Part shown: positions 49,061 through 52,364 of the stretch, in pieces
Position numbering within the stretch: the stretch's first letter is position 1
Layout of the letters: the number at the start of each line of letters is the position of its first letter
Assembly: GCA_011982905.1 (NCBI GenBank)
Contig: GCA_011982905.1_4767.1
Reading direction: 5' to 3' (one strand)
Source of the DNA: a phage
Length of the DNA: 59,846 nucleotides
Notes under the pieces: generated by a model
What the model was told of the DNA's origin: nothing
The model's database searches: none
What the model saw: only the letters and a program-made list of their open reading frames with translations
Made by a program: the position numbers and the translations under genes

Positions 49061-49453
49061 ATGCTATTAGTCGTCACCGGAGGTCGAGATTTTAAGCATG
49101 TGGGGTATATTTACTCTCAACTGGATAAGCTACATATGCAAAGAAGGATAACCACACTTCGCCACGGTGACGCTGACGGTGTTGACCGGATTTGCGCACA
49201 TTGGGCGGAGCGCAACGGTATTAAGACAGAAGCTTTCCCTGCCCCGTGGGGCAATCTTTCCTTACCGAATACCAAGATACGGTATAACGCCAAAGGTGCT
49301 TATAATGCACAAGCTGGCGCTTACCGCAACCAATTAATGCTGGATACTGATCCTAAACCAGATCACGCTATCGTGTTTCCTGGCGGAGCTGGTACTATGG
49401 ATATGTACAGACGGATTAAAGCATCCGGTATCCCTTACACATTAGCGGAGTAA
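49061..49453 (+). CDS. DprA/SLOG-like Rossmann-fold protein (DUF2493-type)
   Basis: 130 aa; LLVVTGGRDF ... RHGDADGVDR ... YRNQ ... FPGGAGT pattern recalled from the DUF2493/SLOG family. Confidence 0.4.
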   Translation: MLLVVTGGRDFKHVGYIYSQLDKLHMQRRITTLRHGDADGVDRICAHWAERNGIKTEAFPAPWGNLSLPNTKIRYNAKGAYNAQAGAYRNQLMLDTDPKPDHAIVFPGGAGTMDMYRRIKASGIPYTLAE

Positions 49454-49928: not shown

Positions 49929-50354
49929 ATGTCAGTAAATTTTGTCAAACAGCCAACTTTAAATACATGCGTTTCTGCGTGTTTGGCAATGATCCTTAAT
50001 AAACCTGTTGAGAAGGTCATTGAGGAATTTCATAGTCGTTATTATAACAACTGGGAAATCACTATCAGCGAATATTTGACTAAGAACGGCGTCCAGCATC
50101 ATTGTTCAGAAGGTGGGGGGCGTGAAACTTTGCATATGGGAGGTTTGTTCCTGTGCACGGTGCCAAGTCTTAATATTCCGGGCGCATTGCACCAGATTGT
50201 GATTGATATGACAGATCACAAGTTTATTGTGCATGATCCAATTAAAGGATGGGAAGGTAAGAAGTTCTATGTTGGTCCGGATCAAGATCCTGAAGAGCCT
50301 GGAGCTTTTATCATTCACACTTGGGTCAAAGACGTTGAAATCCTGCCTTATTAA
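49929..50354 (+). CDS. papain-like cysteine peptidase, C39-like
   Basis: 141 aa; N-terminal QPTLNTCVSACLAMIL matches the Q-x5-C-x2-A-x-L-A-M-I-L signature of bacteriocin-processing C39 peptidases; downstream His (IVHDP) and Asp (GPDQD) at the expected spacing. Confidence 0.55.
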   Translation: MSVNFVKQPTLNTCVSACLAMILNKPVEKVIEEFHSRYYNNWEITISEYLTKNGVQHHCSEGGGRETLHMGGLFLCTVPSLNIPGALHQIVIDMTDHKFIVHDPIKGWEGKKFYVGPDQDPEEPGAFIIHTWVKDVEILPY

Positions 50355-50416: not shown

Positions 50417-50602
50417 ATGACCAAACTATACGCCGGATTGTTTTTATTTGCGACGTTAATGTTCGCTGGGCTTTATACCTATACAGTAGTCGAACAACCT
50501 TCCACGGTTATCCGAATCTTTGCAAGTACAGGGCTTTGCATCTGTCTTATTCTATTTGTTTTATGTATTGTTATTATCCAAGACCAAAGGAAAGTTAAAT
50601 GA
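50417..50602 (+). CDS. small membrane protein (2 TM)
   Basis: 61 aa, two hydrophobic helices. Confidence 0.4.
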   Translation: MTKLYAGLFLFATLMFAGLYTYTVVEQPSTVIRIFASTGLCICLILFVLCIVIIQDQRKVK

Positions 50603-51069
50603 CTGAAGAATGGAAAACAATACCTTTATTTCCAAAGTATGAGGTTTCCACTTTAGGTAGAGTTAGGAGGGCTAACAACCACAAAATATTGACCGGATGC
50701 ATATTAGATGGTCGTAGACGTTATACTTTGCGTCACAATGGTAAGAAATACGGTGTTGATGCTGCAAGATTGATGTGTTACGCATTTCGTGGTCTTGTCG
50801 ACGGTTATGAGAAACTAGATGCACGACATCTTGATGGCAATCCTTTGAATAATGTATTATCTAACGTAGATTGGGGTACACGTAAGGATAACATGGTGGA
50901 CATGGTCCATCATGGTAACGCTTGTCATTCGTTTACAAAGGAAGAAGTTCTAAGTATCCAGCAAAGAGCAGATGCTGGGGAAAGTCAACACGCTATAGCA
51001 AGAAGTATTGGCAGAAGCGTATCCGTTGTTAACTGTATTGTATTAAGAAAGACTTATAACGAATATTAA
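50599..51069 (+). CDS. HNH homing endonuclease
   Basis: 156 aa; N-terminal EWKTIPLFPKYEVSTLGRVRR (NUMOD4-like) and HNH core ARHLDGNPLNNVLSNVDWGTRKDN. Confidence 0.7.
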   Translation: MTEEWKTIPLFPKYEVSTLGRVRRANNHKILTGCILDGRRRYTLRHNGKKYGVDAARLMCYAFRGLVDGYEKLDARHLDGNPLNNVLSNVDWGTRKDNMVDMVHHGNACHSFTKEEVLSIQQRADAGESQHAIARSIGRSVSVVNCIVLRKTYNEY

Positions 51070-51085
51070 TGGGGGGTGGGTTATC

Positions 51086-51547
51086 ACTACTATTGCGTTT
51101 GATGGAAAAGTATTAGCTGCGGACCGTGGCGTTATGCGCGGGGAAGCTGTGACTGCTTATAAGAAAGTTCATAGCGTGAATGGACATCGTGGACGGTTTT
51201 TACTGGGCTTGTGCGGCCTTACAGCATTTACCGATCAGGTGTTGCGTTACTTTAATAGCGCGGAACCTGTTAAGTTCCCAGATATTAAACTTTACAGCAA
51301 AGATGATAATTACGGGCAAACTTGCGGTCTTGCGGTTACTCCGGAAGGTACTTGCCATTTTATTTATAATGATGGTACTTTGAGCGAGCCCATGCTGGAT
51401 GGATGGGGGTCTGAGGGTAGCGGTTGTGTGTTTGCTGCTGGCGCGTTAGCTGCTGGTGCAAGTGCGAGCGAAGCTATTGAGTTGGCAATTAAACACACCA
51501 CATGCGCATTCCTGGGAGTTGATACAATATCATTTGAGGGTTTTTAA
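51086..51547 (+). CDS. HslV/proteasome-like Ntn-hydrolase homologue (translation start unresolved)
   Basis: The frame open from 51047 encodes TTIAFDGKVLAADRG...KKV...GSEGSGCVFAAGALAA, paralleling the HslV N-terminus (TTIV...GDGQ...KKV...GSGG); the first in-frame ATG is at 51134, after the catalytic-type Thr; an ATG at 51069 is out of frame by one base across a G6 run. Confidence 0.45.
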   Translation, partial: TTIAFDGKVLAADRGVMRGEAVTAYKKVHSVNGHRGRFLLGLCGLTAFTDQVLRYFNSAEPVKFPDIKLYSKDDNYGQTCGLAVTPEGTCHFIYNDGTLSEPMLDGWGSEGSGCVFAAGALAAGASASEAIELAIKHTTCAFLGVDTISFEGF

Positions 51548-51808
51548 ATGACTACATTCAGTCACCTGATCCCACCTGCTTATCATAGTAAGGTAGTTGA
51601 CCACGGGACGCATGTTGTAATTGGTGGCGAAATCTTTATCACAGATAACGAGGAAATCGCCATTGCAATTATTGACAGCACTCAGCATGACTTTATGGTT
51701 ATCCTGCAACACGAACCAGATAACTTCACTTTTTACTCCAGCTACGGGGTCGATAAAGGTGGAAAAAGTCTTGTTGCTTTCTACATTAACGACTGGTTTG
51801 ACGGGTAA
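51548..51808 (+). CDS. hypothetical protein
   Basis: 86 aa; GAGGG RBS; immediately after the HslV-like ORF stop. Confidence 0.45.
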   Translation: MTTFSHLIPPAYHSKVVDHGTHVVIGGEIFITDNEEIAIAIIDSTQHDFMVILQHEPDNFTFYSSYGVDKGGKSLVAFYINDWFDG

Positions 51809-52328: not shown

Positions 52329-52364
52329 CTGACGGGGCGTTAGCCCCTTTTATTTGGAGGGAAC

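Follow-up and report, generated by a model that had tools for sequence, protein, structure and literature searches.

The stretch of DNA analyzed here (the window) is the 59,846 nucleotide (nt) phage contig GCA_011982905.1_4767.1. It appears to be a phage contig within a third-party-annotated E. coli assembly (proteins HAG6100146.1 and HAG6100147.1). It is read as a coliphage sequence and is placed by megablast in Seuratvirus (Queuovirinae), with Escherichia phage SeppeHuegi as its best match (97.4% identity across 2 kb). The window contains an open reading frame (ORF) of the HslV/proteasome-like N-terminal nucleophile (Ntn) hydrolase type, and directly upstream of it an ORF with the features of a free-standing HNH homing-endonuclease gene (HEG). 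The HslV-like ORF has no canonical start codon ahead of its catalytic-type threonine. This is due to insertion of the HNH cassette on the start codon of the HslV-like gene.

The frame of the HslV-like ORF is closed by a TAA at positions 51044-46, is open from position 51047 and ends with the TAA at positions 51545-47. It reads ...NINGGWV-ITTIAFDGKVLAADRG...AYKKV...GSEGSGCVFAAGALAA, and the longer form of the translation is ERLITNINGGWVITTIAFDGKVLAADRGVMRGEAVTAYKKV...GSEGSGCVFAAGALAAGAS...*. The earliest in-frame ATG, GTG or TTG is an ATG at position 51134, which is downstream of the codons for a Thr-Thr pair (51086-51091). Another ATG, at position 51069, overlaps the TAA of the HNH gene (TAATG) and sits 14 nt before an ATC codon at position 51083, in a different frame; lengthening the intervening run of six G residues (G6) to G7 would restore the frame. 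The initial annotation of this DNA had described the frame open from 51047, the first ATG after the Thr-Thr and the ATG that is out of frame across G6, and all of these observations are confirmed. It missed that the ATC at 51083 is homologous to the ATG of the uninterrupted homologs and that the anomaly is caused by the HEG cassette. The short ORF that starts at ATG 51069 is read in a different frame in genomes with a run of five (G5), thus neither its length nor its sequence is conserved.

The 154 amino acid (aa) proteins of more than 30 Seuratvirus genomes are 96-99% identical to the window ORF, which is therefore no chance reading frame. A search of 5.8 billion proteins gave nine close homologs. 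All nine are 154-155 aa in length and start with M-T, and in each the Met is aligned with Ile1 (ATC) of the window. Among the 158 family proteins fetched, 143 begin with MT and 11 with MS. Matches of the family profile, with few exceptions, begin at residue 1. The Seuratvirus genes annotated in RefSeq as "peptidase HslV family" (CAjan YP_009196880.1, Seurat YP_009152028.1; PHROG 1040) are found at the same position, between genes for a 61 aa and an 86 aa protein, have 154 codons, and encode a protein in which 152 of the 154 residues are identical to the window ORF. The window differs from these genes by the ATC at codon 1, by ACT ACT at codons 2-3, by a D76N replacement, which is the sole amino acid change apart from codon 1, and by the presence of the HNH gene between the ORF and the original ribosome-binding site.

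The uninterrupted form of the locus is found in phages CAjan, Seurat, slur01, CSP1C and OddieOddie. In these the HslV-like gene is 465 nt long and its ATG overlaps the TGA of the 61 aa gene as ATGA. The empty site reads ...GGAAAGTTAA ATG ACC ACA ATT GCG TTT GAT GG, which is translated as MTTIAFDGK. At the left junction the window and SeppeHuegi have ...GGAAAGTTAA ATG ACT GAA GAA TGG, followed by the HNH sequence. The HNH ORF thus begins on the very ATG(A) that starts the HslV-like gene of uninvaded relatives, and it uses the ATG of the host gene, the Shine-Dalgarno (SD) sequence of that gene and its ATGA overlap. The right junction in the same two genomes is ...TAATGGGGG(G)TGGGTT ATC ACT ACT ATT GCG TTT GAT GG. 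What is left 3′ of the HNH stop codon is a spacer, TAATG(G5-6)TGGGTT, of 13-14 untranslated nt. The boundaries of the insertion are ambiguous by about 5 nt since ATGAC on the left resembles ATCAC on the right.

The HNH ORF displays a NUMOD4 domain (34.7 bits, cutoff 23.4), an HNH_3 domain at 24.4 bits, slightly below the cutoff of 24.8, and an HTH_38 domain (24.3 bits) in Pfam, and it matches PHROG 59 "HNH endonuclease" at 5e-33. The gene is present in only one of the 35 matching phage records; the other 34 megablast records match the window with a gap at its position, and genomes without it show 97-98% identity in the flanks. Of 50,697 phage records, only SeppeHuegi encodes a close homolog of the HNH protein. 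Thirteen variants, from assemblies in NCBI, Logan and ENA, make up its 90% protein cluster, and the junction sequence is available for three of them (P0159, P0160 and P0161). Pattern scans of viral and genome contigs and a protein-guided scan of viral contigs gave no further invaded genomes, and a scan of metagenomes for the junction returned only PPYE01311188.1, which was already known.

The pattern of presence and absence, together with the domain content, matches that of free-standing HNH homing endonucleases. The T-even examples (mobA-E) are likewise small HNH ORFs with a DNA-binding tail that are present in some and absent from other near-identical phages, are inserted at gene boundaries, are co-transcribed with their neighbors and have sequence changes in the adjoining flank. 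The free-standing HNH homing endonucleases of T4-like phages have been described as intergenic, with intronless homing (PMC2988022). In contrast to the intergenic seg and mob genes of T4, the HNH gene of the window, a putative homing nuclease from its domains, is located on the start codon itself. A different HNH gene is found directly after the stop codon of the HslV-like gene in slur01 (NC_028831, 2166-2657) and also in SA126VB, SHIN8, SLUR76 and SLUR26; with the slur01-type insertion the annotated start of the next gene is shifted, giving 288 nt instead of 261 nt. With one HNH gene at the start in the window and another after the stop in the slur01 set, both boundaries of the HslV-like gene are HEG landing sites.

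Codons 1-3 are changed from ATG ACC ACA to ATC ACT ACT across the junction. Each change affects the third position of its codon and two of the three are synonymous, and the alleles that differ by these substitutions are ATGACCACAATTGCG and ATCACTACTATTGCG. The remainder of the ORF differs from slur01 at six of 151 codons; at this background rate, three changes in nine bases have a probability of about 2e-4 by our own binomial estimate. The cluster could reflect immunity of the invaded allele to its own nuclease, or a flank derived from the donor.

The window protein matches PHROG 1040 "peptidase HslV family" with an E-value of 1.5e-30 over residues 2-152. Other single-sequence searches gave less: Pfam PF00227 (Proteasome) scored 15.4 bits, below the gathering cutoff of 22.4 (E = 0.014), the NCBIfam HslV models did not match even at E ≤ 1, and neither the window sequence alone nor a ten-sequence profile gave anything meaningful against the PDB. 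The ten-sequence profile did find 1445 representatives (50% identity) with HMMER at E ≤ 1e-3, mostly 140-170 aa in length and matched from residue 1. In an alignment of 121 sequences K28, G45 and G112 are invariant and M1, T2 and D14 are at least 90% conserved; 38 of these sequences reach E < 0.01 with PF00227. The profile of this alignment matches HslV in the PDB (4hnz at 3.5e-9, 1e94, 1g3i and others), archaeal 20S beta subunits, BPH (5ovs) and beta5. Alignment by hhalign with an E. coli HslV sequence that was entered by hand has a probability of 97%, places residue 1 on residue 1 and pairs D14 with D17, K28 with K33 and G112-S113-G114 with G-S124-G.

An AlphaFold2 model based on the 121-sequence alignment has a pLDDT of 97.5, and all of its top Foldseek matches in the PDB are HslV, 20S beta subunits or BPH (probability 1.0, TM 0.6-0.7). 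A first model from ten sequences was poor (pLDDT 61) and was set aside. The predicted fold is the four-layer Ntn alpha-beta-beta-alpha fold, which with the equivalents of Asp17, Lys33 and Gly-Ser124-Gly is shared with bacterial HslV (ClpQ), archaeal and eukaryotic 20S beta and BPH, and the Thr directly after the Met is shared with HslV. Identity to these proteins is 17-20% and the window protein is about 20 residues shorter than HslV. The profile and model results thus bear out the earlier assignment to the HslV/proteasome-like Ntn hydrolases, and on this basis the window protein is predicted to be a compact member of the proteasome-beta/HslV superfamily and a peptidase, and not an HslV orthologue. 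No AAA+ or HslU-like gene was seen among the neighboring ORFs, part of which were searched against family libraries.

The HslV-like phage proteins are a distinct and mostly phage-borne branch. The earlier remark that such a peptidase is unusual for a phage does not hold, since the gene already has an annotation and is conserved at this site throughout Seuratvirus, 38 phage proteins in BFVD have this fold at E ≤ 1e-3, and the family counts the 1445 representatives given above. The gene is also conserved to 62-69% identity in Salmonella and Hafnia phages. A BFVD entry from Enterobacteria phage 9g (X2KU94, Nonagvirus) is 83 aa long and aligns over 61 model columns with 34% identity and an rmsd of 1.5; possibly this is what is left of a truncated HslV-like gene in the sister genus.

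The junction was recovered from four independent samples. The run is G6 in the window (and in Logan contig SRR5886101_74), where the ATG of TAATG is 14 nt from the ATC, and G5 in SeppeHuegi, in the metagenome contig PPYE01311188.1 and in Logan ERR14033104, where this distance is 13 nt. A 3.5-kb stretch of SRR5886101_74 (59876 nt) is identical to the window; the two assemblies share reads, thus the re-assembly is not an independent confirmation of G6. ATC ACT ACT is invariant in all four samples, and in none of them is the ATG of TAATG in frame. With a G5 run the TAA of the HNH gene is in frame four codons upstream of the ATC, which is therefore the only AUN codon that these genomes have available ahead of Thr2.

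The G-run is a predicted SD element located in the untranslated spacer, neither a slip site nor a sequencing error. GGGGGGU pairs with the 16S 3′ sequence ACCUCCU through four G-C, two G-U and one U-A pair. The energy of the anti-SD duplex ahead of the ATC is -10.6 kcal/mol in the window and -9.7 kcal/mol in the G5 genomes, as compared with -5.6 kcal/mol for the native site before the ATG of the uninvaded phages. Of 40 long-ORF starts and 3000 random positions in the window, 97.5% and 99.8%, respectively, pair less strongly than the ATC site. The extra G of G6 lengthens the duplex at its 5′ end only and the spacing to the start is constant, therefore G5 versus G6 is neutral if translation begins at the ATC, and it is a harmless length polymorphism in non-coding sequence. 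No RNA structure beyond that of shuffled controls was found in the 101-nt region (z = 0.55).

The HslV-like gene probably starts at the near-cognate ATC at position 51083. With the ATG of the host gene and its ATGA stop/start coupling to the upstream 61 aa gene taken over by the HEG, ribosomes would bind at the G-run, possibly helped by termination at the HNH UAA 14 nt upstream, and fMet-tRNA would initiate at low efficiency on the AUC. The product would be Met-Thr-Thr-Ile-Ala-Phe (MTTIAFDGK...), i.e. the protein of the uninvaded phages except for D76N. A Thr at position 2 allows removal of the Met by methionine aminopeptidase, and the catalytic Thr1 could then be exposed as in HslV. Thr2 is encoded and invariant in close homologs; the codon that precedes it in the window is ATC, thus exposure of Thr1 depends on the putative AUC initiation. 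Initiation on AUC in E. coli reporters reaches 1-2% of that on AUG, and the N-terminal residue was found to be Met by mass spectrometry (Hecht et al., bioRxiv 10.1101/063800). The unusually strong SD may be a compensation for this weak codon.

The initial annotation had offered an indel, a -1 slip or a non-canonical start as explanations; the last of these is favored, whereas G5 in three samples speaks against the first two, and no stimulatory structure was found for a slip. A homopolymer error of sequencing or assembly, with a true run of G7 (or G4) and a start at ATG 51069, could be suspected since homopolymers are error-prone and G6 comes from one read set (SRR5886101). The three independent G5 samples are also out of frame however, so that the data sets would need errors of different size, and an in-frame product would carry an extension of 4-5 residues that blocks Thr1 and is seen in no homolog; such an error is extremely improbable. 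Frameshifting from the same ATG across the run would give MGGWVITT..., with a propeptide that is then removed autocatalytically as in the 20S beta subunits. Proteasome beta subunits do remove propeptides, and in the frame of the ATG the sequence G GGG GGU has the form of an X XXY YYZ heptamer. The G5 run of three of the four samples loses the heptamer and would require a +1 instead of a -1 shift, ATG 51069 is essentially without an SD (-0.6 kcal/mol), no stable structure lies downstream, and the family has no propeptide (154 of 158 members begin with M-T or M-S), which makes a frameshift very unlikely. A truncated protein is what current annotations describe: ATG 51134 (137 aa) and GTG 51149 (132 aa) are the first canonical in-frame starts, chosen by GenBank, Logan and PGAP, the 132 aa form being the PGAP call on this contig (HAG6100147.1). 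Both products lack Thr1, Asp14 and the first beta-strands (residues 3-6, 11-14 and 16-19 in the model), the 132 aa call still including Lys28, and would therefore have neither the fold nor the activity of an Ntn hydrolase. The SD of ATG 51134 is weak (-3.3 kcal/mol) and none of the homologs starts there; a truncated product is unlikely. Two other candidates were rejected. Readthrough from the HNH ORF into the peptidase ORF, which are in frame in the G5 genomes with only the HNH TAA between them, was set aside because of the UAAU stop context and the different frames in the window, and ATT 51065 and ATA 51056 because of their weak SD (-0.9 and -1.4 kcal/mol) and because a G5 run places them in another frame.

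The serious rival is that loss of the ATG inactivated the HslV-like gene, and that the ORF owes its integrity solely to a recent insertion or to recombination with uninvaded phages that keeps refreshing it, the peptidase being dispensable. We regard this as possible but the less probable outcome. The canonical start is absent, D76N is unique to the window, and SeppeHuegi, which carries the insertion, is a viable laboratory phage. Several observations also weigh against initiation at the ATC. The AUC is a poor start and might yield hardly any protein; terminating ribosomes may be caught by the AUG in UAAUG and would then cross the SD/AUC region out of frame; D76N, found in the window alone, is at a position that is invariant in close homologs and could be a first sign of decay; and a low ratio of non-synonymous to synonymous substitution rates (dN/dS) is weak evidence for selection after the insertion, since recombination or homing imported variation. 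What speaks against silencing is the very strong SD at ideal spacing before the homologous codon in four of four samples. An SD of this strength occurs at only 0.2% of random positions in the window, and neither chance nor decay is expected to create or keep it. Three genomes have no stop codon or indel in the ORF (these are all of the HEG-carrying genomes that cover it fully) although their HNH genes have diverged by 1.5-1.7%, and the sole indel is in the spacer. The dN/dS of the ORF between the window and PPYE01311188.1 is 0.07, and the gene is conserved in Salmonella and Hafnia phages as noted above.

The comparison of the window with PPYE01311188.1 shows four synonymous and one non-synonymous change in the ORF (P = 0.012 for at most one non-synonymous of five under neutrality). 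The synonymous divergence (dS) in this pair is 0.039 for the ORF and 0.062 for the HNH gene, which are similar values, and the dN/dS of the HNH gene is 0.04-0.14. SeppeHuegi and PPYE01311188.1 differ in the ORF by 16 synonymous codons and no amino acid; NG86 path-averaging gives sd 16 and nd 1. In this pair dS is 0.17 for the ORF and 0.02 for the HNH gene, an eightfold difference, and between SeppeHuegi and the other invaded genomes the ranges are 0.17-0.22 for the ORF and 0.02-0.06 for the HNH gene. Several of the SeppeHuegi ORF variants are also present in Seurat. This, together with the mismatch in dS, indicates that much of the ORF variation has been imported from backgrounds with the ATG, and recombination of this kind is able to mask decay. 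The mismatch implies breakpoints of recombination no more than a few tens of bases away from the junction, either as short co-conversion tracts or as repeated homing into different backgrounds. The evidence for selection on the HslV-like ORF since the insertion is thus suggestive only.

The features of the locus are collected in Table 1. The 61 aa membrane-protein gene upstream has the identical ATGA overlap in CAjan and Seurat. The order 3′ of the 86 aa gene is endolysin, holin and spanins. No promoter-like or terminator-like site was found between the HNH gene and the HslV-like ORF; the next terminator-like hairpin is at position 52334, 3′ of the endolysin gene, where the Seurat record has an annotated terminator.

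Table 1. Coordinates of features at the HslV-like locus of the window.
Feature	Position	Strand	Remarks
HslV/proteasome-beta-like Ntn-hydrolase ORF	51083..51547	+	154 codons + TAA
ATC codon, proposed near-cognate initiation codon	51083..51085	+	Corresponds to the start ATG of every uninterrupted homolog
Catalytic-type positions	Thr2 51086-88; Asp14 51122-24; Lys28 51164-66; Gly-Ser-Gly 51416-24	+	
First canonical in-frame start	51134..51136	+	Used by GenBank for SeppeHuegi (QXV84551.1) and by Logan; 137 aa
AAT codon (Asn76)	51308..51310	+	GAT (Asp) in all nine close homologs and in the other invaded genomes
GGGGGGT, SD-like element	51071..51077	+	G6 = 51071-51076; 3′ end 5 nt before the ATC
Free-standing HNH homing-endonuclease gene	50599..51069	+	156 aa; NUMOD4 + HNH_3 + HTH_38; PHROG 59
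Inserted segment relative to CAjan/Seurat-type genomes	50599..51082	+	484 nt in the window, 483 nt in G5 genomes
Short out-of-frame ORF from the ATG of TAATG	51069..51116	+	MGGGLSLLLRLMEKY*; 15 codons, ends with TAG 51114-16
61 aa membrane-protein gene	50417..50602	+	PHROG 22841; TGA stop overlaps the next start as ATGA
86 aa gene	51548..51808	+	PHROG 23528; abuts the TAA of the HslV-like ORF
141 aa ORF	49929-50354	+	PHROG 4049; two genes upstream of the HslV-like gene
130 aa ORF	49061-49453	+	

The 141 aa ORF displays a weak match to Peptidase_C39 at its N-terminus, QPTLNTCVSACLAMIL (E = 0.037, residues 3-25), and may encode a papain-like cysteine peptidase, judged from this match. The 130 aa ORF has PF10686 (YAcAr) in precomputed Pfam matches of the Logan and NCBI copies, and its counterpart in CAjan and Seurat is labeled "GTP-binding domain" by RefSeq. 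In the GenBank record of CSP1C (PQ202980, 318-2117) the product names seem to be displaced by one gene, with "ATP-dependent protease subunit HslV" on the 86 aa ORF, "endolysin" on an ORF of holin size and "cysteine protease" on the 61 aa membrane ORF. Literature searches found no papers on this locus or on the HslV-like proteins of Seuratvirus.

The locus belongs with two known phenomena, insertion of a free-standing HEG and non-canonical initiation. As to the latter, E. coli infC and pcnB, both with AUU starts, are comparable in that an AUN near-cognate codon is at the genuine start of a conserved protein and is preceded by a recognizable SD. The window differs in that the codon is AUC, has arisen through insertion of a mobile element and is proposed as a start from sequence, and no autoregulatory logic is known for it. 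It is conceivable, but doubtful, that the HEG cassette is a portable replacement initiation region in which a strong SD is combined with a deliberately weak AUC, such that expression of the peptidase would be dependent on, and throttled by, translation of the endonuclease through termination-reinitiation coupling, and the junction substitutions would shield the invaded allele against the nuclease that it carries.

For annotation, three pipelines at present call a "hypothetical protein" of 132 or 137 aa without the catalytic Thr. The gene should instead be modeled with 154 codons and a non-canonical ATC start, or as a pseudogene by loss of the start codon, and the G-run should not be "corrected". 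The phage proteasome-like family to which the protein belongs is large and functionally uncharacterized, and this applies to the family as a whole and is not specific to the window. Free-standing HEGs are generally regarded as insertions into intergenic DNA that do no harm to the adjoining genes. The locus is a clear natural example of a HEG that landed on a start codon, took over the ATG and the translational coupling of its neighbor, and left it with a strong SD and a near-cognate start. If the cassette did act as a portable initiation region, a selfish element would have rewritten the start codon of its host gene at the expense of canonical initiation, and a natural AUC-initiated enzyme would now be present in the phage. 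If AUC initiation is confirmed, the HslV-like gene would be a rare natural case of an AUC start in an E. coli phage, and the G5/G6 and ATC/ATG alleles would offer a simple system for the study of compensation by the SD.

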